Shown here in pieces: positions 2,390 through 43,495 of a stretch of 64,000 nt of DNA (its first letter is position 1; the number at the start of each line of letters is the position of its first letter). This stretch comes from a bacterium (GTDB lineage Bacteria; UBA8248). The position numbers and the translations under genes are program-made. The notes beneath the pieces were generated by a model. It saw only the letters and a list, made by a program, of their open reading frames with translations, had not been told where the DNA came from and made no database searches. The stretch is from positions 2,144,001 to 2,208,000 of the forward strand of contig OZ253442.1 of the NCBI GenBank assembly GCA_965261085.1, given 5' to 3'.

Positions 2390-3424
2390 TCAGGCGCGCT
2401 GCCCGGCCGCGGGGCGCTGGAAATGGGGGAGGACTTCTTCGCCGAGCAGCCGAATCGAGTTGAGTATCTTGCCGTGATCAAGCCCTGGAAACTGAATGCG
2501 GAAGTGCATGGAGGTCGTTCCGAGTTCCTCCTGATATCGTTTGATCTGGCGAATGCAATCATCCGGCGAGCCCACAATAAAGCGCCGGCGAAGATTTTCC
2601 ATAGCTTCAGCGCCCTGCTTCACCGGCCTCCCCTCGTCGTCCACCAAATGCCCCCAATCAAGATACTCCTGGTAGTTATAGAGCATGGGTTCTCGCGCCT
2701 CCTCCCAAGCTCGCTCGCTCTCTTCGGCCACGTAGGCTTCGCGTCTCAGGGGGAACTCCACCTGGGATGCGTCCTTCCCCGTCTCGGCCAGGGCATCGAG
2801 ATAGACTTGTTTTCGCTCCTTGAGCACCTTGAGCGGCGTGACCGGATCGGCGAGCCATGCGTTTCCCATGCGTGCGGCGCGGCGGATAGCGGCGGGCAGC
2901 TTGGCCGCCACCCAAATGGGAGGGCATGGCTTCTGCACCGGGCGAGGCATGAGGGTGACATCCTCCATGGGAAAGTAAGGGCCCGTGTGTGTCACGCCCC
3001 GCTCCGTCATTAACCGGCGAACCAGTCCGAGAGCCTCCTCAAAACGGGCGGCCCGTTGCTCGAAAGGAACATTAAAAGCCGCGAATTCCTCCCGCCTGTA
3101 GCCGAGTCCCACCCCCAGCACGAAGCGGCCCCGGGACATGATGTCCAGGACCGCGGCGTCCTCGGCCACCGCCAGCGGGTGATAGAAGGGAAGGAGGAGG
3201 ACGCAGGTGCCGATGCGCATCTTCTCCGTCCGGGTAGCGATGCCGGCGCAGGTCACCATGTTGGAGGGAAAATAGCCGTTATCCTCCACCATGTGGTGTT
3301 CGCTCGTCGTCACCATGTCGAAGCCGTACTTCTCCGCCAGGGCGATCTGCTCCAGGGAATTGTGATAGGCATCCACCCAGTGCCCAGTGCGAGACTGATA
3401 GCTGTAGTGCAAGGCGAACTTCAT
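2390..3424 (-). CDS. LLM-class (luciferase-like) flavin-dependent oxidoreductase
   Basis: Motifs AEKYGFD..SEHH, HPL.VAEDAA.LD..S.GRF.LG.G.GYR.EF and P.PVQKP.PPIW; GGAGG RBS upstream. Confidence 0.9.
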   Translation of the reverse strand: MKFALHYSYQSRTGHWVDAYHNSLEQIALAEKYGFDMVTTSEHHMVEDNGYFPSNMVTCAGIATRTEKMRIGTCVLLLPFYHPLAVAEDAAVLDIMSRGRFVLGVGLGYRREEFAAFNVPFEQRAARFEEALGLVRRLMTERGVTHTGPYFPMEDVTLMPRPVQKPCPPIWVAAKLPAAIRRAARMGNAWLADPVTPLKVLKERKQVYLDALAETGKDASQVEFPLRREAYVAEESERAWEEAREPMLYNYQEYLDWGHLVDDEGRPVKQGAEAMENLRRRFIVGSPDDCIRQIKRYQEELGTTSMHFRIQFPGLDHGKILNSIRLLGEEVLPHFQRPAAGQRA

Positions 3425-3587: not shown

Positions 3588-5003
3588 TCAAGATTCGATC
3601 GTGTATTTGGACAGGACGCCCCCGGACTTGCCGCGCGGGACGAACTGGCCGTAGCCCGGTTGTTGCATGAGCTCACCCTCCCGGAGGACCACCTTTCCGC
3701 GCAGGAGACTGAGCTCCAGCCGGCCGCTAAGCTCCCATCCCTCATAGAGCGTGTAATCGGAATTCGTGTGCTGCCCCGCCGCCGTCACGGTCGAACGCCC
3801 ATCCGGGTCGATGACGACGAGGTCGGCGTCGGAGCCGACGAGAAGCCCTCCTTTCTGCGGGTAGAGACCCAGGGCGCGCGCCGGATTCTCACTCGTGAGC
3901 TGCACGAGGCGCTCGGCCGAAATCCTCCCGCGGGCAACGCCCTCGCTGAAGAGAACCGGAAGGAGGGTCTCGATGCCGGGAGCCCCGAAGGGCGCTTCGG
4001 TGAAGGGCGGGTCATTCTTCTGCGCCTGGCTACAGGGGGCGTGATCGCTCCCGATGACGTTGATCCATCCGTCCTGGATGCCCTTCCAGAGAGCGGAGAC
4101 GTCCGCCTCCTCCCGCAGCGGAGGCGCCACCTTGGCCAGGCTTCCCCGCTCCCGCACGGCCGCCCCCGTGAGGGTCAGATACTGCGGGCAGGTTTCCACG
4201 ACGATGTCCTTCCCGGCCGCCAGCGCGCGCCGCGCCTCATCGAGGGCTTGCGCCGCCGTGAGGTGGACGATGTAAAGCGGGCAGCCCGCAAGATCCGCGA
4301 GGTGGATCGACCGCGCTACCGACTCGGCCTCCAACTGGGGCGGGCGTGTGTATTCCAGGAATTCGGCGCCGTCCATTCCGGCATCGAGGGCCTTGTTCTC
4401 CAGGTAGTCGATGACCAGGCCGTTTTCGGCGTGGACGAGCACGGTGCCGCCATGACGCCCCACGATATCGAGCGCGGCGTAGAAGTAGTCGTCCGGGATG
4501 CATCGGCCGCGGCCCCGCTTTCGGTAGCCCATCATGACCTTGAAGGTGGTGACGCCGCTATCGATGGCCTTGGGGATCTCGGCGAGATACTCGAAATCCT
4601 CGAAGATCCAGGCGTGCAGCGAGAAGTCGATCACGCTCTGCGCTTCGCCCTCCTCGCGGCAACGCTGCAGCGTGGAGAGCATGGTCTCATTCTCCTCGCC
4701 CGTGGCGAAGGGAACCATGGTCGTGACTCCTCCGTGCGCGGCGCTCCGCGCAACGTCGGACAGGGAATCGACATGGGAGGAGTACGCCCTGAAGTGGACA
4801 TGGGGGTCGACGACACCCGGAAGAATGAGCTTGCCCGGCACCTCCAGGACCTCCTCGGCGGCGGGCATACTTTCCGGCGCGCCCACACAGGCGACCCTCC
4901 CGTCTCGAACGCCGAGAGCAGCCTCCTGCCGGCCGTGACCGGATACGATTGCGCCGCCTTTCACGAGCAGGTCGAGCGGTTTCTGCTGGGACCTATCTGT
5001 CAT
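3588..5003 (-). CDS. Cyclic amidohydrolase (dihydropyrimidinase/hydantoinase/allantoinase family)
   Basis: PG.VDPHVH, A.HGGVTT, FKVMM (candidate carbamylated Lys), VHAEN, IVHLT, ETCPQYL, GSDHAP and G.L.VGSDADLV. Confidence 0.88.
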   Translation of the reverse strand: MTDRSQQKPLDLLVKGGAIVSGHGRQEAALGVRDGRVACVGAPESMPAAEEVLEVPGKLILPGVVDPHVHFRAYSSHVDSLSDVARSAAHGGVTTMVPFATGEENETMLSTLQRCREEGEAQSVIDFSLHAWIFEDFEYLAEIPKAIDSGVTTFKVMMGYRKRGRGRCIPDDYFYAALDIVGRHGGTVLVHAENGLVIDYLENKALDAGMDGAEFLEYTRPPQLEAESVARSIHLADLAGCPLYIVHLTAAQALDEARRALAAGKDIVVETCPQYLTLTGAAVRERGSLAKVAPPLREEADVSALWKGIQDGWINVIGSDHAPCSQAQKNDPPFTEAPFGAPGIETLLPVLFSEGVARGRISAERLVQLTSENPARALGLYPQKGGLLVGSDADLVVIDPDGRSTVTAAGQHTNSDYTLYEGWELSGRLELSLLRGKVVLREGELMQQPGYGQFVPRGKSGGVLSKYTIES

Positions 5004-5384
5004 GAAAACCTCCCTTGCGGACAGTCGCCGACGCCGGATGAAACAGCCGTTTCACGCCGGCTCCTCCTTTGTGAAATGACCCGGCCATGAAGCGGTAATC
5101 GAACTTTGATACTTCAACTGATTAAGACGCAGCATACTATATATCGCGGGCGCGCCAAAACCCGGGTGCATCCATTCGGTTTCTCAAAAATACAAATCAA
5201 TCGATAAAGAGGGGCCGAATACCGTTCTTGGGCGAGGCGGAAATCGGCAAGGCGGCCCTGCGCAAAGCTCTTATCGAAAGTGAGCAGTCCGTGGCCCGCA
5301 AACATACACAGGGCCGTTCGCGAACGGTGGGGCAGGCGCATAGGCGGCAGGCATGTATGTCCGCCCGTGCGATTTCTTTCTTTT

Positions 5385-6701
5385 TTAATACTCGAACACC
5401 GTGGGGCCGTCCACCTTTTCGGTCAGCGCCGCTACGGCCGCGCGGGCTGCGCCGAGGCGCCATTCGCGCTCGGCCTCGGGCGTCCGGGAGGGATCGCCGA
5501 AAGGATGGTGAAAATGTCCGGCGCGGTTGTTGACGATTCGGTTGACCCCGATGTCACGCGCCACGTCGGGCAGACAGGTGACGATGACGGTGGGGATGGC
5601 CTCCCGCTCCAAGGCTCTCGCCAGCGCAGCCCCGCTGCGCGTGCCGGTTCCTCACGTGGCGGGGAGGACGACGCCCTCGACCCCGGCCTTTTTGAGCTCC
5701 GCGGCCCAGGCGCGGCCGATGCCGTCCATCTCGGCGAAGGCGCCGCCGTTCCCGCAGGTGCTCAGAAAATCATCGTGGAGCGCGGCGATTTCGCCCTCGT
5801 TTTCTAACCGCCGGAAGGCGTCCACGGCGAGCATGCGGTCGGGCTCCTCGTTCACGAACACGGTGTTGAAGCCCCCGTGGATCGAGATGAAGGCGCCGCC
5901 CGGAAGGGCGTCTTTCCCCTCGAAGGAGTAGGTGGCCCAGTTCTCGTTCCTTGAGCCGGCGAAGCGATCCGGGTTGCCGGGGGGCACCATGCCGCCTTCT
6001 GATACGATGGCGATGCGGGCCTTTTTGAGATCGGCGATAGGCTTAGGCGGAGCTATCTCTTCCAGAACGGGCACTTCGAGTTCCGTCTCGTAGGGCTCGC
6101 CCTTGATTTTCTGGAGAACCATATCGACGGCGCGCCGCGAAGTCGGAAGCTCGGCGATTTCGTTGTAGCGGATGCCGCGCGGGAGGTAGCCATCGTCTGC
6201 GGCATTGCCGACCTCCTCGCCCCGGGCGAGCTTGAGCCCCAGGCGGGCGGCGGCTTCTAAGGCCTCTTCCATCCCGGCGGCGGACGCGGCTGCGGGGACG
6301 GTGTGAACGCTGATTCCGGCGGCGGGAAAGCCCGGATTCTCAGGGTGCATGGCGGTGACGACGGGAATGCCCGCCTCCTGCGCTGCGCGGCAGACGGCGG
6401 CGCAGGCGAGCCCGAAGCGCCCGGCGTTGAAAGCGGGCCCGGCGAGAACGAGATCGGGAGAAAACGCCATCACCAGCGCGATGGCCTCGGCGGCGCATGT
6501 TTTTTCATTCTCGGCGAAAAGACCGTCTCCCGCAAAGACGGTGCCGATGACTTCGGCGTCCTCGCCCAGGATTTTATCGAGCAATACGCCGGGGCCGACG
6601 GGGCCGGGCCGGGTGGATACGGGATGATCGCTTTTCTCCTCGCCCCCGACACCTGCGAAAAACTGGTTCAAGTAGTGAACGACCCGAAGTTTAGTGCTCA
6701 T
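5385..6701 (-). CDS. grdB: Glycine/sarcosine/betaine reductase selenoprotein B-like, 438 aa with in-frame UGA (Sec350) at 5654-5652
   Basis: ORFs 5652..6701 and 5385..5612 are in one frame. Readthrough gives ...VVLPAT-U-GTGTRSGAALARALEREAIP...GVNRIV...HPFGDP...TVFEY. GrdB motifs: VHYLNQFFAGVGGEE, GPAFNAGR, PENPG, GNPDR, HGG. Confidence 0.9.
5624..5640 (-). promoter_or_regulatory. Candidate bacterial SECIS hairpin of grdB
   Basis: mRNA: UGA, 11 nt, then GCGCAGC-GGG-GCUGCGC (perfect 7-bp stem with a G loop). Confidence 0.65.
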
Positions 6702-6915
6702 AGCCTGGCCTCCTCGTATGAATTCCTTGAAACATATAGGAAATTACACGTGATTATATACTTAATAAAGTGAGCCTCAAGATGTATATTTCTTTGAATG
6801 GGTACTTTATCAACAATCAAAGGTAGAGAGTTTTTCATCGTAGTTCCTGATTCTGGTTTTTTTGTCGATGACCTGCCTGAGTTCATCAATGACCCTAGAA
6901 ATATCATCCCCCTGT

Positions 6916-7239
6916 TCAATTCGTTAGGTAGATAGTGCTTTCATCTGTCTTGCCGTCTTCTTTTAGTTTGTTATATTCGGCTTGCGGCATCGACTCTATA
7001 TGCGTGATAGTTTTGGACTTAACGACATGCTCTTTTTCGTTAAGTGACACGCTACGAGAATCTACTTGGTTGATGATATTGACAGTCGGCTGTTTCTCTA
7101 TCCCGTCAATTTTTTCGCGTAGTTCGCGAAACTGCTTCTTATGAAAGAGCCAACCAATCATCAAACCAACAGCCACAGCTATACCGTAGGATAGTGCTTC
7201 CCTTGCAATAAACTTGACCAACGATTCAGGAAGTTCCAT
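6916..7239 (-). CDS. Hypothetical single-TM protein in an AT-rich insert
   Basis: 107-aa ORF with one hydrophobic segment (ALSYGIAVAVGLMIGWLF); composition much more AT-rich than the flanks. Confidence 0.55.
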   Translation of the reverse strand: MELPESLVKFIAREALSYGIAVAVGLMIGWLFHKKQFRELREKIDGIEKQPTVNIINQVDSRSVSLNEKEHVVKSKTITHIESMPQAEYNKLKEDGKTDESTIYLTN

Positions 7240-7414
7240 GTTCTCTTACCACCAGTTGTGCCTAGCTTAGTCAAGTTTATAATCACGCATTCTTAAATCT
7301 GCAAAAGTAGGCGTGAAATTTGCTTTAGTTTTCAAAATACAATTCCCGCCAAACATTTTAGCCCCGTGTCGAACACCCGGCAGGGCGAATATCCCGATCA
7401 ACGATCCCCCAACC

Positions 7415-8698
7415 TCAGTACGCCTTGCCCACCATGTTGTTGATGTCCTTCGCCCACTCGCTGGCGTAGTAGTCGCTGTCGACCAGGGTAAAGGCCTCGC
7501 GGACGTTGCATCTCTTACCGTTGTAGAATTCGACGACCTCGGAGCCGATGACGCGCTCCACCGCAGGGGCGGCGATGCGCTCCCCCTGCATACCCTTGGA
7601 AATGACGGCGTCGGCCTCGGGCACATGAAAGACGAGCGGGAACTCGCCCGACCCCGGACGGCCCACCTCGTAGATGATCGGAACGGCGCTCACGCCCATC
7701 TGCTCGAGCGCCTGGACGGTGAGCCAGTAGTCCACCGTGGAGTTGCCGCCGCCCTCGAAGGCGAGAACCGCGCCGTCGGCCTTGAGGAGGGTGGCGAGCT
7801 TGGCCACGTATTGCGCCGAGCGCTCCTTGAGCGCCTGGTTGTCGTGGTGGCCGCGCGTGATGACCATGCCTGCGAAATTGAGGTCCACCCCGTGGCGGCG
7901 GTAGAGCTCGTATATGAGCGGCATGTTGCAGTGCAGATAGGTCGGCGCCTTCTGCTGCGTCTTGTAATTCGCCCCCACCACCGCGCCGTCGAGCATCTCG
8001 TTCGGGTGAATGAGCGTGGGAAGCGAATCCCCCAGATTTTTGCCGTACATGAAGGTCTGAACCATGGACGCCTGGTGCATGACCTGATCGACGAAAATCA
8101 CCCGGGGAAGGCCGGGGTCGACGTCGCCGATCTCGAACCTTTCCAAGCTAACGGGTTCGAGCTCCGCCGTGTGCGCGGCCAGCCGGGACGCCACCTTCAG
8201 CGTCGCCAGGCGCACGGCGTCGTCATGCGCTTCGTTCGAGGCGCCATCCAGCGGCTCATAGCAGGCGACGAGATTCGCGGTCTCTGAATTCGTGCAGTGC
8301 ATCGCACCAGGACCGGACATATCGATAATCCCCTCGCGAAAGCTCATGATGCCCGTCATGGGACCGAGGAAATGGGTGGTGCTGATGACGCACATCCCAG
8401 CGAGCTTGTGGGTGCGGCCTTGGCCTGCGGTCTTCGCCGGGCCGAGGAATCCGGGGAAAGCGCATGAGCGCCCGCTTACCTTGTAGAGAGGCTCCACCGC
8501 ATCTAAGACGTTGGTGATCCGCACCGAATCTCCCGGCATGGCGGCGTGAAAGCTGACATCCTTGAGCGTGCCGTCTTCGAGCGCCAGTTCACGGAGGGCA
8601 TCGGCATCCACGGTGAGCGTTTTATCCCGGTACGCGAAGCGCTTTCCGAGGATGATTTTTGATACGGGAAATATACCCATCTCCAATTTCATGGACAT
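7415..8698 (-). CDS. grdE: Glycine/sarcosine/betaine reductase component B proprotein (GrdE/GrdG/GrdI family)
   Basis: PGDSVRIT.V.D.VEP..KV, FPG, G.G.TH.L.G, FREGIIDMSGPGA, HP.E.LDGAVV, LY.RHG.DLNF.G and EG.GN motifs. GGAGG RBS just past the grdA stop; exact ATG (8701/8698/8692) uncertain. Confidence 0.85.
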   Translation of the reverse strand: MSMKLEMGIFPVSKIILGKRFAYRDKTLTVDADALRELALEDGTLKDVSFHAAMPGDSVRITNVLDAVEPLYKVSGRSCAFPGFLGPAKTAGQGRTHKLAGMCVISTTHFLGPMTGIMSFREGIIDMSGPGAMHCTNSETANLVACYEPLDGASNEAHDDAVRLATLKVASRLAAHTAELEPVSLERFEIGDVDPGLPRVIFVDQVMHQASMVQTFMYGKNLGDSLPTLIHPNEMLDGAVVGANYKTQQKAPTYLHCNMPLIYELYRRHGVDLNFAGMVITRGHHDNQALKERSAQYVAKLATLLKADGAVLAFEGGGNSTVDYWLTVQALEQMGVSAVPIIYEVGRPGSGEFPLVFHVPEADAVISKGMQGERIAAPAVERVIGSEVVEFYNGKRCNVREAFTLVDSDYYASEWAKDINNMVGKAY

Positions 8699-8709
8699 CA
8701 TCGCCTCCA

Positions 8710-9162
8710 CTACCTCGCCGTGCGCATTTCGGCGAGATCGCTTTCTATCTGCTCTAAATCGAGCACCATTTCCATCATGAGAAGTTTATCGGCGTACAGG
8801 TCCTCGGGAACCTGGGATCGCACCTTCTCCTCGAGGATGTGAAAAACGGGGAGTCCCAACGAGACTCCCGCCAGGGGCCCGGCCCAACTGGGGTCCCCGG
8901 TGGTCAGCGTTTCGGCCGCGAGCCGAAGGCCTTCACCGGGCATTCCCAATACCACCATCAAATTTTCCGGCCCGACCTCATCCGCAATCGATTTGATGGC
9001 GGCCTGGTTTTCCAAGTCCATGGCGCCAGCGGAGGTTCAGACGAAACACTCCGTCTTCTGGAATACGATCTCCGCTCCCGCCGCCTCGAGGCATTCGGCA
9101 ATCAGCGGACCGGGAACGCCGTCCCGCTCGCCCAGCGCAATCACCTTCTTGCCCTTGAACAT
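8710..9162 (-). CDS. grdA: Glycine reductase selenoprotein A, 150 aa with in-frame UGA (Sec42) at 9039-9037
   Basis: ATG 9162 follows GGGAGG. Translation: [25 protein letters not shown]...[18 protein letters not shown]...[23 protein letters not shown]...MMEMVLD, with the canonical CxxU motif. Confidence 0.93.
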
Positions 9163-9198
9163 GAATATCCTCCCGCTTGCTACAAAAAAACGAACGAA

Positions 9199-10617
9199 TC
9201 ATGCTTCTATCAATACCGAAGCCCCGTCGGCCTGCTGGGACATCCGGCCCAGAAACAGACTCCCTTTCGCCACCACCATTGTACTCTGAAGGTGGCCCGC
9301 CCGCATCCTCTTAAGAGCGTGGCCGAGAAAGGGAACGCCTGCGGGAATGTGCCCCTGCGTAGGCGCGAATCCGGGCATCCCGTGCGCCTCGATAAAATCC
9401 GGAATCTCCTCGCGGGCTATTTCCCCGCCCATGACCGCCATGGCGGCCAGCATTCTGTAATTCGTGGCCGCAACGTCTCCCGCCCCCGCAGGCAGCATGA
9501 CCTCGGGGTTATGCAGTTCGACGGCATACTTATCGACGCTTCTCAGCTTGCGCCCGGCCCGGGCCAGCGGGTCCCGCACCAGAGCCTCGGCCAACCCCTG
9601 GGGGGTGGAGGGCCTTCCCGCCGCGTGGCGACCCGCGATTTCAAGATTCACCCGGGGGCCGTCTTCCGAATTTTTAGTGAGAAAGAACGCCACCCCGCCC
9701 AATACGTCTTCGAGAACGGGCATCTCTTTTCCCAGATGGTAGTACGCCTTCATCCCGAGCTTCGCCATCGAACCGCCTCCTACGACGACGGCGTTTCCCA
9801 CGACACCCGCCTGAATGAGGGCCGCCGCGTGTATGAGCGCGTACACCGGCGCCGCGCAGAAAGACTTCACATCGACGCCGGCCGCATTCACGCAACCCGC
9901 CATCTCGGCGATTGCCTTGGCGAGATTGCCTCCGCCGCGATTGTAGCGATCTCCGACCGCCTCCTCGGAGCAACTGATGACGTACTCTATTACGTCCGGA
10001 GCGATGCTCTCCTGCACCAGAAGCCGGCTGAGAGCGTATGCGCCGCTGGCCTTGGCCGCCAAGTTTTCCAGAAGAATACGGGCATTGAGCGATTCGTCGG
10101 AATCATGATCGCGGCGAATGCACCCGATGAGTCCTTTATTCTGAAAAAGCGGCAGGGCCTCTCCTCGCTCGATGCGCCGGAAAATGTCTTCCTGGGGATA
10201 TTCCTTTGGGGGTTTTTCTGTTTTGAGAAGAGCGGAGGTGGATTCCGAACCTATGACGCCCGAAACATGACGCTCCTTGTTGCGCATGATCAATCCAAAC
10301 TGATCGGCCGCTTCGAGAAGGGAGTAGAAAGAATTCTGCGGGAGGATTTCCCCGAAAACGCCCTCAGGCGAAGCGCCTGCGAGGGAATTTTCGTACCACG
10401 GAGAAGGAATTTCATTCAACTTCTCGGGCGCGAGATTGCCGATGAAAACCTGGTTCGGCGCATAGCCGACCACTTCGTCAAAAGACCGCAGATTTGTGAA
10501 TACGTCGCCAGGCGCCTGATTGTTCCGGATAGCCTCGCGCCAGGGTTTCGAGCCGTAGCGAACCAGATCGGGAACATGAACGAGAACGTTCGCCGCCGCA
10601 CGTAAATACGCAGTCAT
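9199..10617 (-). CDS. grdC: Glycine reductase component C large subunit (FabH/thiolase-like)
   Basis: LVHVPD, LRSFDEVVGYAPNQVFIGN, CSEEAVGDRYNRGGGNLAKAIAE, FCAAP, ELHNPE, GFAPTQGHIP and KGSLFLGRM. Confidence 0.9.
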   Translation of the reverse strand: MTAYLRAAANVLVHVPDLVRYGSKPWREAIRNNQAPGDVFTNLRSFDEVVGYAPNQVFIGNLAPEKLNEIPSPWYENSLAGASPEGVFGEILPQNSFYSLLEAADQFGLIMRNKERHVSGVIGSESTSALLKTEKPPKEYPQEDIFRRIERGEALPLFQNKGLIGCIRRDHDSDESLNARILLENLAAKASGAYALSRLLVQESIAPDVIEYVISCSEEAVGDRYNRGGGNLAKAIAEMAGCVNAAGVDVKSFCAAPVYALIHAAALIQAGVVGNAVVVGGGSMAKLGMKAYYHLGKEMPVLEDVLGGVAFFLTKNSEDGPRVNLEIAGRHAAGRPSTPQGLAEALVRDPLARAGRKLRSVDKYAVELHNPEVMLPAGAGDVAATNYRMLAAMAVMGGEIAREEIPDFIEAHGMPGFAPTQGHIPAGVPFLGHALKRMRAGHLQSTMVVAKGSLFLGRMSQQADGASVLIEA

Positions 10618-10845
10618 ATCACCCGCCAAAAAAGGAGGAAGGAAAGATTACACGAGCATTCGTACCGGAAATTACATGCCACATCATCTCACCCGGCAAA
10701 AACCATTCACCACGCGTTTTTTCAGCACCCGCCCTGTTCTTCAATAAACACATCCAGGCCAGGGCTTCATCATAAAGAAACGGGAATGATATGCGAAACG
10801 AACAAACTCTTTGCACTTCGATCTTTCATTTCGTTGAGCAGGTTA

Positions 10846-11107
10846 CCGGCTCGCCCCGAGCTTCGCTCAGTCGGGATTGACCCGGCATTTCCCCGCATTT
10901 GCGCTTCTCGCGCGTGGCGGGGGTTTCGCTATGGTGGCGAAGCGAGCCGGCCCCTTCACGAAGACGGGGCGGGCGAATCTCTCGCAGCCCTCTCATGAGG
11001 AAGACTCGATGACAAGGCGTACTTCAAGCTATCCTTTCATGCGGACCCAGGCGGCGAGCCTCACGGGCTCCCTCATGGGGACGGGGCGGAGCGATGGAAC
11101 GGCCCCG
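10846..11107. ncRNA. Candidate structured non-coding RNA or leader upstream of the grd cluster (family unidentified)
   Basis: Closing stems CCGGCTCGC/GCGAGCCGG (10846-10854/10942-10950) and CATGAGGAAG/CTCCCTCATG (10994-11003/11068-11077), each enclosing several sub-hairpins; no credible ORF here. Confidence 0.45.
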
Positions 11108-11144
11108 AGGGGGAGGAGAGGTGAGGATTCGGAATTCCTGAAAA

Positions 11145-11192
11145 ATACGATAAAATTAGATAAATTCACGGGGTTTTTCGATAAATTTCTGA
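11145..11192 (-). promoter_or_regulatory. 48-bp motif with phased TTTATC boxes, copy 1
   Basis: Its reverse complement matches 23723-23770 at 43 of 48 positions. Confidence 0.6.
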
Positions 11193-11373
11193 AAATAAAT
11201 CGCCCGGAAGAAGCCTTGCAAGGTGTTGAAATACAATGATATTCAATCAAAATATGAGTGTATGCCGCTCAAATAAAAGACCGAAAAAAATTTAGCGTTC
11301 CGCATTTGCCCGCAAATCCGATGAGATGGGCGCAGTTCCCGGTATTATCCCGCAAATCCTCACCCCCCCCATG

Positions 11374-11401
11374 TTGACATTTGGGCGCAGTGGCGTAATC
11401 T
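11374..11401 (+). promoter_or_regulatory. Putative sigma70 promoter of tal
   Basis: TTGACA-N16-TAATCT about 60 nt upstream of the ATG. Confidence 0.35.
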
Positions 11402-11459
11402 TCATAACAGCGGGGCATGACCCCGTGGGGGGGAATGAACACGTCCAGCGGGAGAGAAC

Positions 11460-12110
11460 ATGAAGATATTCATTGATACGGCGAACGTGGAAGAAATCAT
11501 CGAAGCGGCGTCCACCGGCATTCTGGACGGCGTGACGACGAATCCCTCGCTCATAGCGAAAGAGGGAGCGGACCACCACACGAGAATCAAGGAGATATGC
11601 GAGGTGGTCGACGGGCCGGTGAGTGCGGAGGTCATCGCCACGGAGGCGAACGAGATGGTCGAGGAGGGCCGTGAACTGGCCGCTATCCACGAGAACGTCG
11701 TCGTGAAGGTTCCGGTGGGCGTCGAGGGCCTGCGCGCCGTCAAGGCCATGCGCGAGGAGAACATCAACACGAACGTCACCCTCATCTTCAGCCCCGTCCA
11801 GGCCATGCTGGCCGCCAAGGCGGGAGCCTCGTTCGTGAGCCCCTTCGTGGGCCGGCTGGACGACATCTCGAGCCCGGGCATGGAGATGGTGGCCGACATC
11901 GTGCAGATCTTCGAGAACTATGATTACGCCACCGAGGTATTGGTGGCGAGCGTGCGAACGCCTATCCATTTGCTCGAAGCCGCGAAAATGGGAGCGGACG
12001 TAGCAACGGTGCCTTTTCAGGTGATTGCGCAGCTGCTCAAGCATCCATTGACCGATATCGGGTTGGAGAAATTTTTGGCGGATTGGCGCCGCGCCAATGA
12101 AATGCGCTGA
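11460..12110 (+). CDS. tal: Transaldolase / fructose-6-phosphate aldolase (TalC/Fsa)
   Basis: [30 protein letters not shown] and SPFVGRLDD. Confidence 0.93.
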
Positions 12111-24085: not shown

Positions 24086-26286
<2,201 letters not shown>

Positions 26287-26328
26287 GCGCGCTGCTGCAC
26301 CGAAGAATAGTTGAGGGATGGACGTGCG

Positions 26329-27171
26329 ATGCGAACGATAGACGCAGGCGAGGTGACGGCCAGGATTCGCGAAATGTCCATCGAGTCGAACTACCATGTC
26401 GACCCCGCCTACGTGCGGAAGATCGAAGAGGCGAAAGCCGGTGAAACCTCCTCTCTCGGCCTCATGGTGCTCGACCAGATCACCGAGAATGCGGCGCTGG
26501 CGTCCGCCGAGCGCGTGCCCTATTGCCAGGACACGGGCGTTTCCATCGTCTTCGCCGAGGTGGGCCAGGACGTCCACGTAGAGGGCGGGCTTCTGGAGGA
26601 CGCCATCAACGAGGGGGTTCGCCAGGGCTATCGGGACGGCTATCTGCGCGGCTCGGTTGTCAACGACCCGCTCCGCCGCGTGAACACCAAGGACAACACG
26701 CCCGCCGTTATCCACTACCGCGTCGTCGAAGGCGACAGGCTGAAACTTTATTTCGCCGCGAAGGGAACGGGCGCTGAAAACATGAGCATGGCGCGTATGC
26801 TCAAGCCCTCAGATGGCCGCGAGGGTGTGATTCAGACGATTGTCGACCATGTTTTCAAATCGGGGGGAAACCCATGCCCCCCCATTCTGTTGGGTATTGG
26901 TCTGGGCGGTTCTATTGAAAAGGCGGCGCTTCAGGCGAAATGGGCATTGTTTCGCGAACTGGGCGCGCCCAACACCGATCCCCTCGTCGCCGAACTCGAA
27001 CGCGATATACTCGAGGCGGTGAACAGGACCGGCGTGGGGCCGATGGGCATGGGCGGGGATACCACCTGCATCGCCGTGCACGTCGAAACCTACGCCTGCC
27101 ACATCGGAGCGCTGCCGATTTGCGTGAACGTGGAGTGTCACGCGCACCGCCACGCCGAGGTGGTTCTCTAA
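26329..27171 (+). CDS. Fe-S fumarate hydratase / tartrate dehydratase alpha subunit
   Basis: CQDTG, GYLR.S.V, NT.DNTP, KG.G.EN, GNPCPP and C.AHRH; sits in the TCA operon. Confidence 0.92.
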   Translation: MRTIDAGEVTARIREMSIESNYHVDPAYVRKIEEAKAGETSSLGLMVLDQITENAALASAERVPYCQDTGVSIVFAEVGQDVHVEGGLLEDAINEGVRQGYRDGYLRGSVVNDPLRRVNTKDNTPAVIHYRVVEGDRLKLYFAAKGTGAENMSMARMLKPSDGREGVIQTIVDHVFKSGGNPCPPILLGIGLGGSIEKAALQAKWALFRELGAPNTDPLVAELERDILEAVNRTGVGPMGMGGDTTCIAVHVETYACHIGALPICVNVECHAHRHAEVVL

Positions 27172-27172
27172 A

Positions 27173-27718
27173 ATGCGGACGATTGACCTCCCGCTCGACC
27201 AGAAGGTGGTGGAATCCCTCTCGATGGGCGACATATGCGAGTTGAGCGGCGTCCTCTATACGGCGCGGGATGCGGCCCACAAACGGATGCTCGAAGAGGC
27301 CGCGCGCGGAGAAGCCCTGCCCATCGAAGTGGCGGGCCAGGTGCTCTTCTATGTCGGGCCGACGCCGCCCAAGCCGGGGGCCATCATCGGCTCGGCGGGA
27401 CCCACGACGAGCGGCCGCATGGACGCCTACACGCCCAGGATGCTGGAACTCGGCCTCACCGGAATGATAGGCAAGGGGGGCAGGAGCCCGGCGGTGGTGG
27501 AGGCCATCGCCCGGCATCGCGCCGTCTATTTCGCCGCCATCGGCGGAACGGCCGCCCTGCTGGCGAAACGCGTCAAAGAAGTCGAGTTGATCGCTTACGA
27601 AGATTTGGGGACCGAGGCGATTCGCAGGCTCGTGGTCGAGAAATTTCCGGTCGTGGTCGCCGTGGACAGCCGGGGGCGGGATATTTTCGCGGAAGGTTTC
27701 AAGAAGTTTGCAAAGTGA
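27173..27718 (+). CDS. Fe-S fumarate hydratase beta subunit
   Basis: TARDAAHKR, GPTTSGRMD, IGKG and DLGTEAI. Confidence 0.92.
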   Translation: MRTIDLPLDQKVVESLSMGDICELSGVLYTARDAAHKRMLEEAARGEALPIEVAGQVLFYVGPTPPKPGAIIGSAGPTTSGRMDAYTPRMLELGLTGMIGKGGRSPAVVEAIARHRAVYFAAIGGTAALLAKRVKEVELIAYEDLGTEAIRRLVVEKFPVVVAVDSRGRDIFAEGFKKFAK

Positions 27719-27828
27719 GGCCCGCTCGTGCGTTTCTGTCTTGGTGTTCATGGCGCGATTTTTAGGGAATTATGTATGTGATTTGACGTTGCTATTTCGG
27801 GTTCCGGATGCGAAAGGGAATAATGTAA

Positions 27829-28057
27829 TCACTCCCCCCTTGAGGGGGAGTCGGCAAGGTAAGGGCGAAGCCCGCAACCGCGCCGGTGGGGGGTGAATTC
27901 CGACTGAAGAAGGAGGAATTCTCCTGACCGAAGAGGGGGTGTTGCGAACGAGGAAAACATCGGCCCCAATTCCTCGCTCCTCGCTCAGCATTGTCCCCCC
28001 ACCGCATTAGCCTTCGCAAGGCTCGGCTTCTGCGACTCCCCCTCAAGGGGGGAGTGA
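27829..28057. mobile_element. Non-autonomous palindromic element (MITE/REPIN-like), copy 1
   Basis: Perfect 25-bp terminal inverted repeat TCACTCCCCCCTTGAGGGGGAGTCG, itself a hairpin; related copy at 41044-41287. Confidence 0.75.
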
Positions 28058-28230
28058 GAAAAACCCGAGCAGGGGAGAGTGGTTTTGGAGAAGGAATTAT
28101 GAATTTAACTGGTCGCAGCTTTGTGAATTGACCGGCAAAAAAGGTTTGTCAACCGAAGTATTATGATTCTTTTTTGTGCTTAAAATTTCAGCGTTAGAAT
28201 GTATTCATCGCATTGATTCTGGAGGGTTGG

Positions 28231-29391
28231 ATGAACATCCACGAGTACCAAGGCAAGGAATTGCTCGCGAAATACGGCGTGGCCGTCCCGAGGGGCGGGG
28301 TCGCCGAGACGACGGACGCGGCCGAGCGCATCGCTGCGGATCTGGGCGGCGCGGTGGTCGTCAAGGCGCAGATTCACGCCGGCGGGCGCGGCAAGGGCGG
28401 CGGCGTCAAGCTGGCCGGGACGCCTGCGGAGGCGAAAGAAGCGGCCTCGGAGATTCTCGGCATGACGCTGGTGACGCACCAGACGGGGCCGGAAGGTCGT
28501 CTGGTCAAGAAGGTATGGGTGGAGGAGGCGAGCGACATCGAGCGCGAACTCTATCTCGGCATCGTGCTCGACCGCGCCACGGGCCGCCCCACTATCATGG
28601 CCAGCACCGAGGGCGGTATGGACATCGAGGAGGTGGCCGCGAAAACGCCCGAAAAACTCCTGAAGGTTCCCGTCGACCCGGCGCTGTCCGTTTGGCCCTC
28701 GACCGCGCGGCGCGTCGTTTATGGTCTGGATTTACCCGCCGGCCTCGTTCGCGAGGGGGTCAAATTCGTCACGAATCTCTACCGGTTTTATGACGAAATG
28801 GACGCTTCCCTCCTCGAGATCAACCCCCTGGTGCAGACGAAGGACGGCCGCATCCTCGCGCTCGACGCCAAGGTGAACTTCGACGACAACGCGCTCTACC
28901 GCCACGAGGAGGTGGCCGCGATGCGCGATGAAGACGAGGAGGACCCGCTCGAGGTCGAGGCCTCGAAATTCAACCTCAACTACATCAAGCTCGACGGCTC
29001 GGTCGCCTGCATGGTGAATGGTGCGGGCCTCGCCATGGCGACGATGGACATCATCAAACTCGCCGGGGCGTCCCCCGCGAACTTCCTCGACGTGGGCGGC
29101 GGCGCGAGCAAGGAGATGGTGGAGAACGCCTTTCGCATCCTCATGGACGATCCGGACGTGAAGGCCGTTTTCATCAACATCTTCGGCGGCATTCTGCGCT
29201 GCGACGTTCTCGCCGAAGGCGTCGTGGAGGCCGTCAAGACCGTGAACGTGAACGTGCCCATCATCATCCGCATGGAGGGGACGAACGTGGAGAAGGGCCG
29301 CGAGATCCTCGAAGGCTCGGGTCTCGATTTCACCGTGGGCAATACCATGGCCGATTCCGCCGAGAAGGTGGTCGCGGCCCTTAAGCGCTAG
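28231..29391 (+). CDS. sucC: Succinyl-CoA synthetase beta subunit
   Basis: [40 protein letters not shown] and NIFGGI.RCD. Confidence 0.97.
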
Positions 29392-29402
29392 GGGGTCTGG
29401 TT

Positions 29403-30299
29403 TTGAGTATTCTGATCGACAAGGAGACGCGCATCCTCGTGCAGGGCATCACCGGGCGCGAGGGAGGCTTTCATGCCGCGCAGTGTCAAAAATACAGCCG
29501 TGAGTTCGCGGGCGGCGGCGGCGCGGTGGTGGCCGGCGTGACGCCCGGCAAGGGCGGGCAGGAGGCGGACGGCGCGCCCGTGTTCAACACGGTCGCCGAA
29601 GCGGTGCAAGAGACGGGCGCAAACGCCTCGCTCATCTTCGTGCCGCCCCCCTTCGCGGCGGACGCCGTCGTGGAGGCCGTGGACGCAGGGTTACCCCTCG
29701 TGGTGTGCATCACCGAGGGCATTCCGGTGCGCGACATGGTGTACGTCAAGCGCCACATGGAAGAGGGCGAAGCCGTGCTCATCGGCCCCAACTGCCCGGG
29801 CGTCATCACGCCCGGCGGCTGCAAGATGGGCATCATGCCGGGCCACATTCACAAGGAAGGCACCATCGGCGTCATCTCGAAGAGCGGCACGCTCACCTAT
29901 GAGGTCGTCGCCCAGCTCACCGAACAGGGTCTGGGCCAGACGACTTGCGTGGGCATCGGCGGCGACCCCGTCATCGGCACGATGTACATCGATCTTCTGC
30001 GCATGTTCGAGGACGACCCGAAGACCGAGGCCATCATCATGATCGGCGAGATCGGCGGCTCCGCCGAGCAGGACGCGGCGCGCTGGGCGAAGGAGAACGT
30101 CACGAAACCGCTCGTGGGCTTCATCGCGGGCCAGACGGCTCCTCCGGGCCGGCGCATGGGCCACGCGGGCGCGATCATCTCCGGCGGGGAGGGCACCGCG
30201 GCCGAGAAGATGCGGGTCATGGACGAATGCGGCATTCACGTCACCGAAAGCCCGGCCGAGATGGGCCTCACCATGGCCAAGGCGCTGGGCAGGGCATAA
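29403..30299 (+). CDS. sucD: Succinyl-CoA synthetase alpha subunit
   Basis: [27 protein letters not shown] and RMGHAGA; TTG start. Confidence 0.97.
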
Positions 30300-42172: not shown

Positions 42173-43495
42173 ATGATTAGGCAACTGCACCTCAATTTGT
42201 TCGTCCAATCTCGGGGCCACCACGAAGCAGCCTGGAACCATCCCGATTCTTCGACAGCCTCGCTTACCGATGTAAACTACTATGTGGATTTAGCTCAACG
42301 TGCGGAGACGGCGCTTTTTGATTCGATCTTTTTCGCTGATTCACTGATGTTGACACCGGATGCTCCGCGGTCCGGGCGAATCTGGCTTGAACCAATAACT
42401 TTATTAGCGGCGCTCGCCGTCGCAACCGAGCGGATCGGGCTGATCGCGACGGGGTCGAGCACATATTCTGAGGCCTTTAACCTTGCGCGGCAGTTCAGCT
42501 CGATTGATCACATTAGCAATGGCCGTGCCGGTTGGAATATCGTCACCACTTGGATGGCGAAGGTCGCGCGCAATTTCGGTGATGCGGGTCAGGATAGTCA
42601 TGCGGACCGCTACATGATGGCCGAGGAATTTGTCCAGGTCGTCAAAGATTTGTGGGACAGCTGGGCCGATGACGCCGTGGTTGATGATCGTAACGGTGGC
42701 GTCTACGCCAAAAATGATCGAATTTGTTCAATCGACTTTAACGGCAAGTATTATTGCGTCGCGGGGCCGCTGACCCTGCCGCGCAGTCCGCAGGGGCGAC
42801 CGGTGCTGGTGCAGGCAGGATCGTCGGATGCCGGACGTGATTTTGCTTCGCGTCACGCCGAGGCAGTATTTACAGCCCACCTTGAAAAAGCGACGGCACA
42901 GAAGTTTTACACGGATATCAAGAAGCGAGCGGTTGCAGCAGGTCGTGATGCAAACCAAGTCCTGATTCTGCCTGGTCTGAGCCCAATGATTGCGTCGACC
43001 GAGACCGAAGCAAAACGAATGGAACAGGATCTCAATGAGAATACTGACCCGGAGAGCGGTCGCCGTACTCTCTCTTCACGGTTTGACGGACATGATTTCT
43101 CGCATTTGCCGCTAGACCGGCCGCTGACGCCGGACGATTTCCCTCCACCCTCCAGTGTCGAAACCATGCGTAGTCGGTCCGAGTTGGTCGTCAATCTTGT
43201 GCGTAACGAAGGCCTTACTTTGCGCCGGCTTCTTGCTCGTTTTGCCGGTGCTCGTGGCCACTTTACTTTTGCTGGCACGCCCGAGCAGGTCGTTGATATG
43301 ATTGAGGACTGGTTCCGAGATGGTGCCGCCGATGGTTTCAATGTGATGCCGCCGCTTTTTCCCACGATGCTGGATGTTTTTGTTGAAGAGGTGGTTCCGA
43401 TTCTTCAGCGTCGCGGGTTGTTCCGGACAGAATATAAAGGCAAGACGTTGCGAGAACACTATGGACTCGATCGACCCGCTGGGCGGTTTTGGTAG
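42173..43495 (+). CDS. NtaA/SnaA/DszA-family FMNH2-dependent monooxygenase
   Basis: FFAD, LEPITLLAALA..T.RIGL, DHISNGRAGWNIVT, SPQGRPVL.QAGSS, ADGFN and P.LQ.RGLFR.EY.G.TLRE. Confidence 0.92.
   Translation: MIRQLHLNLFVQSRGHHEAAWNHPDSSTASLTDVNYYVDLAQRAETALFDSIFFADSLMLTPDAPRSGRIWLEPITLLAALAVATERIGLIATGSSTYSEAFNLARQFSSIDHISNGRAGWNIVTTWMAKVARNFGDAGQDSHADRYMMAEEFVQVVKDLWDSWADDAVVDDRNGGVYAKNDRICSIDFNGKYYCVAGPLTLPRSPQGRPVLVQAGSSDAGRDFASRHAEAVFTAHLEKATAQKFYTDIKKRAVAAGRDANQVLILPGLSPMIASTETEAKRMEQDLNENTDPESGRRTLSSRFDGHDFSHLPLDRPLTPDDFPPPSSVETMRSRSELVVNLVRNEGLTLRRLLARFAGARGHFTFAGTPEQVVDMIEDWFRDGAADGFNVMPPLFPTMLDVFVEEVVPILQRRGLFRTEYKGKTLREHYGLDRPAGRFW

Follow-up and report, generated by a model that had tools for sequence, protein, structure and literature searches.

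A four-gene, two-selenoprotein relative of clostridial glycine reductase with altered GrdE and GrdB active sites in a Nitrospinota-like bacterium

What does a cluster of glycine reductase-like genes do in a diderm bacterium when two of its reading frames appear to be broken by stop codons and its catalytic motifs deviate from those of the known enzymes? The question is raised by a grdC-grdA-grdE-grdB cluster in a 64,000-nt stretch of a UBA8248 genome (assembly GCA_965261085.1, contig OZ253442.1, positions 2,144,001 to 2,208,000; this whole stretch is called the window, and positions are given in its coordinates). Few enzymes other than those of the Grd type employ two selenoproteins in series, and to our knowledge Grd biochemistry has so far been studied in only a few fermenting anaerobes and with four substrates. 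We find that the cluster is a four-gene, two-selenoprotein relative of clostridial glycine reductase and, judging by its sequence relatives, that it belongs to a very large, widespread and uncharacterised subfamily.

Reading TGA as selenocysteine (Sec) merges the split frames of the locus into four minus-strand genes in the order C-A-E-B (all cluster features below are on the minus strand). grdC (9199-10629), for the thiolase/KAS-like beta subunit of protein C, begins with a TTG at 10629, with an alternative ATG at 10615-10617, where the first-pass annotation had placed the end of the cluster; its product scores 576.1 bits with NF040746 (cut-off 450) and also matches PF19364. Selenoprotein A is encoded by grdA (8710-9162; 150 codons, with the motif C39-F-V-U42), which scores 205 bits with NF040748 (cut-off 130) over residues 3-148 and is spanned by PF04723 from residue 2 to 147. 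The grdE-like gene for a protein B subunit (7415-8710, its true start possibly lying at 8692-8710) matches PF09338 with 350.6 bits, and the grdB-like gene for selenoprotein B (5385-6701; 438 codons) matches the broad subfamily model TIGR01918 with 411.5 bits (cut-off 65.45) over residues 6-437. The thiolase-type cysteine of GrdC, Cys258 in the motif FCA (codon at 9856-9858), is invariant in 92 of 92 GrdC genes, with GrdD nearby or not. Sequence and profile searches of the PDB with GrdB, GrdE and GrdC returned nothing below E 0.1.

The first-pass annotation had read the two apparent stops as in-frame UGAs at the Sec positions of GrdA and GrdB, with homology on both sides, and this is borne out by profile matches, substitution rates and RNA hairpins. 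The family matches of GrdA and GrdB run through the UGA, covering both sides, at codon 42 of grdA (9037-9039; motif TECFV-U) and codon 350 of grdB (5652-5654). The ratio of nonsynonymous to synonymous substitution rates (dN/dS) in comparisons with close relatives is 0.05-0.14 on the 3' side of the grdB UGA and 0.11-0.25 on the 3' side of the grdA UGA (six of six comparisons in each case), and past both UGAs it is as low as upstream of them. Among homologues, TGA is aligned to TGA at the Sec site in all 138 alignable GrdB genes.

A hairpin resembling a selenocysteine insertion sequence (SECIS), GCGCAGC-GGG-GCUGCGC, lies 14-30 nt past the grdB UGA (5624-5640). It is kept across 112 distinct sequences, in which 741 of 784 pair cells are paired, as against 137-521 when the partner strand is slid; the loop always reads GGN, and compensatory changes (TA/AT and TA/CG) are seen. 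Indeed, the change of the codon at U+6 from TGC (Cys) to AGC (Ser) is matched by a change of the pairing base from A to T, such that 75 sequences have a TA pair and 37 an AT pair. The candidate SECIS hairpin of grdA (AUGG-ACUUGG-AAAA-CCAGG-CCG-CCAU; 8996-9021, 18-43 nt past the UGA) has an inner stem, CCUGG/CCAGG, that is common to the folds of the window and six relatives, and is evidence of a weaker kind than that for grdB, being a comparison of folds without a covariation count. The host genome, a single contig of 4.27 Mb that is 96% complete, holds the machinery for Sec insertion: selA (579 bits), selB (384 bits), selD (336 bits) and a tRNA-Sec that scores 75.9 bits against a gathering score of 47. 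The selD gene (G000:C1:3459-4421) itself has an in-frame TGA, and selenophosphate synthetase is therefore a probable selenoprotein in its own right.

We compared the active sites of the window proteins with those of 80 genome loci recovered by GrdB alignment. The processing site of canonical GrdE reads SGN-C-VSACDK, and its cysteine is the pyruvoyl precursor; in Clostridioides difficile this is described as Cys242, with peptide 242-266 carrying the cofactor (PMC9908766). In the window and in six Nitrospinota-type relatives the site reads GAN-Y-KTQQK, with Asn248-Tyr249 (7964-7969) at the place of Asn-Cys, and hence there is no pyruvoyl precursor. This tyrosine is invariant in 25 of 25 aligned GrdE sequences of the Tyr type, which suggests a functional role. 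GrdB deviates on the far side of Sec, where the same seven loci have PAT-U-GTGTRSGA in place of the canonical TST-U-GTCTRCGA, such that the window protein has Gly at U+3 (5643-5645) and Ser at U+6 (5634-5636). The CxxC motif that is lost in this way is said, in a paper citing work by Andreesen from 2004, to protect Sec. The two deviations occur together: the U+3 residue is Gly in 61, Ser in two and Cys in one of the 64 pairs with a Tyr-type GrdE, as opposed to Cys in 68 and Asp in one of the 69 canonical pairs, among which we counted six rows reading V at the GrdE site, an alignment offset at GNCV sites.

A further cysteine, Cys316 of the window GrdB (5754-5756; motif STCGNGG), has counterparts in 43 of 64 Tyr-type GrdB proteins and in none of the 69 canonical ones, which have Val or Thr there. 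Cys at this position always accompanies the U-G-x-G-T-R-S form, and from these alignments it may be a relocated partner thiol for Sec.

Gene content deviates as well. The subunit that makes acetyl phosphate is reportedly GrdD, acting through its Cys359, according to work by Kohlstock and colleagues from 2001. In the host genome the best match to the GrdD model reaches 19.4 bits against a cut-off of 350; this weak match is PlsX-like, and the same one is found in six control genomes, such as that of E. coli. A tblastn search of the genome with a validated GrdD (from locus L091; 616 bits) likewise gave no match. Of 81 genome loci, 52 do match this query, each of them canonical and with the match beside grdC; the query has no match in L026-L032, L037, L040, L044, L066, L089 and L106. 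GrdD exceeds its cut-off in none of five further genomes holding Tyr-type clusters, and is found in none of 78 metagenome loci with the Tyr motif. Searches of the host genome for grdX were also negative; trxB and a thioredoxin gene are present elsewhere in it. The departures that had been noted on first inspection, in the GrdB motif, the GrdE processing site and the gene content, are thus confirmed, with U-GTG-TRS, Tyr249 and no grdD in a single-contig genome. Separately, GrdC Cys246 (9892-9894) is found in 31 of 40 GrdC proteins from loci without GrdD and in 11 of 52 from loci with it; these are related sequences, and the count is a lead only.

Is this a known enzyme with unusual residues, or a different branch of the family? 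GrdA and GrdC of the window exceed the cut-offs of the NCBI equivalog models, and GrdB and GrdE fall below all substrate-specific ones. GrdB scores 393.2 bits with the glycine equivalog TIGR01917 (cut-off 602.2), 412.5 bits with the sarcosine model NF040794 (cut-off 800) and 348.6 bits, its lowest substrate-specific score, with the betaine GrdH model NF040795 (cut-off 775). The best NCBIfam match of GrdE is GrdG (NF040793), with 253 bits against 780, and its score with the fluoroacetate FarE equivalog NF053623 is 125.7 bits against 675. None of 63 variant GrdB proteins exceeds a substrate-specific cut-off; the best E-values among them, 3.9e-171 for glycine, 7.8e-181 for sarcosine and 2.1e-150 for betaine, convert to approximately 571, 603 and 502 bits. 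By contrast, the cut-off of TIGR01917 is exceeded by five canonical GrdB proteins from four control genomes, and that of the betaine model by one GrdH.

Trees built from GrdB place the window protein outside the canonical clade. In a quick tree of 44 rows, the 19 canonical rows, among them HMM-validated glycine GrdB and betaine GrdH, are all set apart by one branch (support of 93 in the Shimodaira-Hasegawa-like approximate likelihood ratio test, SH-aLRT), and the window GrdB lies inside an all-variant group of 15 (support 97). A quick maximum-likelihood tree of 84 rows likewise splits the canonical CxxC rows from the window by a branch with an SH-aLRT of 94, and in both trees the window GrdB groups with Nitrospinota-type sequences and with its own paralogue. 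No nesting within a characterised clade was seen, either in these trees or in the equivalog scores.

The paralogue belongs to a grdA-grdC-grdE-grdB cluster 0.95 Mb away in the same genome (G000:C1:1202842-1207413, equivalent to L026:8834-13413), with 41-51% identity, the same GrdE Tyr and a GrdB reading U-GSG-TRS. Within the phylum, 37 of 51 genomes contain GrdE relatives, as do 30 of 41 within the family. No GrdE match was obtained in six congeneric genomes, of which four are 98-100% complete. A representative library of 1.84 billion proteins contains 1085 GrdE relatives at E <=1e-3, and among the best 150 representatives at 50% identity (146 aligned, four shorter than 330 aa having been dropped) 64 have Tyr at the processing site, 16 have Phe and only eight have Cys; with three reference rows added, the counts are Y 66, F 16, C 9, S 9 and H 8, besides others. 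As the query was itself of the Tyr type and the matches were ordered by similarity to it, these counts are biased towards that type. In the 78 metagenome loci mentioned above, which were retrieved by scanning for the Tyr motif, every visible GrdB partner reads AT-U-G[TS]GTR[SC]G. The cluster is therefore no singular oddity; the proposal of an uncharacterised reductase in the first-pass annotation is supported as to the branch, and the different substrate that it proposed is a matter of inference only.

In several of the 78 metagenome loci, two E-B modules share one grdA-trxA-grdC set, which suggests that several substrates feed one A/C core, as in clostridia. Tandem arrangements of two different GrdE-GrdB modules are seen in L158, L162, L165, L170 and L164, with grdA adjoining the modules in L158 (followed by trxA and grdC), L162 and L165 (followed by grdC).

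We found no paper on a Grd variant lacking GrdD and the pyruvoyl group, or on Grd in Nitrospinota. The partial precedents in print are GrdI and FarB/FarE, as described in PMC10838667, and a five-subunit Grd complex is treated for Desulfobacterota only, as far as the consulted text of PMC12827605 goes. The sources name genes of the present type "glycine reductase" or "betaine reductase", or give them a broad family name.

The genes around related clusters bear on the substrate. Neighbours in 23 related loci include TctC beside grdE in four, TRAP transporters in two, a DASS transporter in one and IclR regulators in five, and the paralogous cluster in the host genome has an IclR-family regulator gene before it and tctC-tctB-tctA after it. 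These uptake systems, identified by their sequence families, point to an imported organic acid as the substrate. Further upstream of the paralogous cluster are genes for a TauE/SafE-family membrane protein, an ABC transporter, an IS1595 transposase, a DsbA-like protein and a CMD-family protein. The amidohydrolase, luciferase-like and TctBA genes downstream of the window cluster were considered as parts of the system and set aside, given that grd has none of them nearby in L027-L032; only three of 18 Nitrospinota-type loci have the luciferase-like gene downstream again. An Rfam scan of 5000-11600 on both strands, with E up to 1, gave no match, including none to a glycine riboswitch, and so there is no riboswitch clue. 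As to the host, its best match to the nitrite-oxidiser marker TIGR03479 scores 139 bits against a cut-off of 985.

Two other features of the window deserve mention. The luciferase-like (LLM) oxidoreductase gene downstream of grdB (2390-3424) has 30 further tblastn matches genome-wide at E <=1e-3, an unusually large paralogue family, and a second LLM gene is found in the window at 42173-43492. A run of tricarboxylic acid (TCA) cycle genes at 24086-30296 encodes isocitrate dehydrogenase, a malate/lactate dehydrogenase, class I fumarate hydratase and the beta and alpha subunits of succinyl-CoA ligase, in agreement with the earlier remark that the host encodes TCA enzymes.

Since the catalytic groups required for glycine are missing, as is the subunit that would form acetyl phosphate, the substrate is probably a different carboxylic acid. 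We propose, with moderate confidence and by analogy with characterised family members, that the cluster encodes a Sec-dependent Grd-type reductase that would need no Schiff base and would act, without pyruvoyl group or GrdD, on an imported carboxylate. By the same analogy, each step of a mechanism can be sketched. The uncleaved GrdE/GrdB pair would bind a carboxylate whose alpha-carbon bears a leaving group, one that does not need activation through a Schiff base, as for betaine in GrdHI and fluoroacetate in FarBE; that no Schiff base is formed is inferred for the subfamily because these two precedents act on such substrates. The invariant Tyr249 would occupy the place of the pyruvoyl group. 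Sec350 of GrdB would displace the leaving group and become Se-carboxyalkylated, and the carboxyalkyl group would then be transferred to Sec42 of GrdA. Formation of a Se-S bond with GrdA Cys39 would pass the acyl group, as a thioester, to Cys258 of GrdC, and the thioredoxin system, whose genes lie elsewhere in the genome, would reduce the oxidised GrdA again. Release of the acyl group would be by hydrolysis or to CoA, and, because GrdD is absent, not as acetyl phosphate.

Several considerations weigh against this proposal. Members of the subfamily are known from sequence data. The groups in which we counted residues are made up of related sequences, such that the co-occurrence of Tyr and Gly does not represent independent events, and both trees are quick searches, midpoint-rooted and with long branches. 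The role of the pyruvoyl group is itself debated, one view, cited in PMC9908766, being that a second carbonyl in GrdB binds glycine, and for this reason loss of the GrdE cysteine does not strictly exclude glycine as the substrate. In the Nitrospinota-type clusters no neighbour family is found in more than four of 18 loci, and neighbours that are not conserved give no substrate hint. Lastly, the 713-nt AT-rich insert between grdE and grdB, described below, might disturb co-expression of the two genes.

We considered whether the cluster could be an ordinary glycine or sarcosine reductase, serving glycine catabolism or a reductive glycine route, in which the replacements are tolerated and acetyl phosphate is made by another enzyme. 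That GrdA and GrdC pass the equivalog models common to all Grd systems would be expected in this case, as would the order of the GrdB scores, in which the sarcosine (412.5 bits) and glycine (393.2 bits) models come first among the substrate-specific ones; the unsettled role of the GrdE pyruvoyl group (PMC9908766) and the weak PlsX-like match to the GrdD model (19.4 bits) can be counted on the same side. However, the processing site holds a Tyr and no Cys, Ser or Thr, the CxxC of GrdB is lost, the scores are far under cut-offs that the five canonical controls pass, and the window GrdB lies outside the clade of the validated glycine types. Moreover, Desulfovibrio desulfuricans G11, the one diderm with experimental support for glycine reductase, is described in PMC7547702 as having both C subunits, alpha and beta, and the region 5000-11600 holds neither a glycine riboswitch nor another Rfam match. 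We therefore regard a glycine or sarcosine reductase as unlikely.

A reductase for betaine or another quaternary amine, in the form of a distant GrdHI that yields trimethylamine, would account for the GrdE site, since GrdI has an aromatic Phe there, like the Tyr of this GrdE, and is described as uncleaved (PMC10838667). Close relatives come from marine metagenomes, judged by contig names, and grdH homologues in open-ocean proteobacteria are cited in PMC9321204. Yet validated GrdH keeps U-GTC-TRC and branches within the canonical clade, apart from the window protein, and it is with the GrdH model that the window GrdB scores lowest (348.6 against 775), the best of the 63 variants reaching an E-value of 2.1e-150. 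No Pfam BCCT betaine/choline transporter was found among the scanned neighbours, which have carboxylate systems of the TTT, TRAP and DASS families instead. Overall, we consider a betaine reductase proper quite improbable.

The insert between grdE and grdB (6702-7414; 41% GC, as against 62-66% in the flanking genes) contains a 107-codon open reading frame (6916-7239) whose product is hydrophobic near the N terminus and matches no family. The insert is absent from the relatives, and in one RNA-library contig from a relative the positions 6725 and 7413 are directly joined. Parts of all four genes are represented, at 90-99% identity, among RNA-library contigs from four runs of two studies; these are only a hint of transcription, as DNA carry-over is possible, and they are assembled contigs, such that the uncovered stretches 6809-7411 and 9824-11000 carry no weight. 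The grdE-grdB spacer is a hot spot for cargo of low GC content (43-51%, as against 61-65% in the flanks) in relatives: L028:7194-9000 and L141:5402-9163 hold a two-gene pair ending in a PIN-domain protein, L032:7087-9000 holds a DNA methylase-like gene, L029:8506-9000 is a further case, and the 3.4-kb insert at L140:9291-12694 is delimited by a duplication of the 5' end of grdB, with 77 residues matching PF07355. In other relatives the spacer is only 100-300 nt long. That the window cluster is a decaying or silent remnant, dead in this strain since the AT-rich insertion uncoupled grdE from grdB, would fit the insert with its unrelated small reading frame, the other cargo at the same spot and the six same-genus genomes without a GrdE match, which mark the trait as dispensable, but this is very improbable given four intact frames with dN/dS of 0.05-0.25, relatives that keep intact genes despite inserts of 0.5-3.8 kb and, as a hint, the RNA-library contigs.

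Returning to a Sec-dependent reductase of imported carboxylates, we note a more general possibility, which we put forward tentatively and would not yet back at even odds: that a phylum-spanning class, composed of GrdE(Asn-Tyr), GrdB(U-G-x-G), GrdA and GrdC and lacking GrdD, and including the window cluster, reductively cleaves a carbon-heteroatom bond adjacent to the carboxylate in non-amine acids, such as those with O-, S- or halogen substituents, with the Tyr replacing the pyruvoyl group as catalytic acid and the acyl group passing from GrdC to CoA or water. If so, the reaction would serve carbon assimilation or detoxification in diderm bacteria that do not ferment, and would not be an energy reaction of the Stickland type. 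Given that the canonical Cys is a minority in the neighbourhood of this GrdE (eight of 146, against 64 with Tyr, in a list whose ranking favours the latter), much of the diversity of the family may perform chemistry that has not been assayed. Identification of the substrate would add a new reaction to the carbon and selenium cycling of marine and soil bacteria, and would allow the automatic names "glycine reductase" and "betaine reductase" to be corrected.

How, then, does the window cluster compare with systems of known function? With the glycine reductase of Stickland-fermenting Clostridia (GrdA, GrdB-GrdE and GrdC-GrdD; EC 1.21.4.2), exemplified by the Caloramator fervidus locus L091 with its order grdX-trxB-trxA-grdE-grdA-grdB-grdC-grdD, it shares a GrdA with CxxU, a GrdB whose Sec aligns with that of the clostridial protein and is followed by the same SECIS hairpin, a partner of the GrdE family and a GrdC with the invariant Cys; identity is 41-45% in GrdB and 33-41% in GrdE. 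It differs in having Asn-Tyr for Asn-Cys in GrdE and U-GTG-TRS for U-GTC-TRC in GrdB, in lacking grdD, grdX, trxA and trxB from a cluster ordered C-A-E-B, and in its host, a Nitrospinota-like diderm. With betaine reductase (GrdH/GrdI; locus L117, where GrdH scores 824.6 bits) it shares an E-type subunit without a processing Cys, GrdI having Phe and the window protein Tyr at the site, a loss that fits a substrate needing no Schiff base, going by the account in PMC10838667; unlike the window GrdB, GrdH keeps the CxxC after Sec (U-GTC-TRC) and lies in the canonical clade. The fluoroacetate system of Cloacibacillus porcorum (Synergistota), compared here by its description in PMC10838667, has the same two losses, farB being without the CxxC and farE, like grdI, without the processing cysteines. 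The radical-SAM and antiporter genes of the far operon were not seen among the neighbours of the window cluster, and Far is described as operating in a host that has GrdC and GrdD (PMC10838667).

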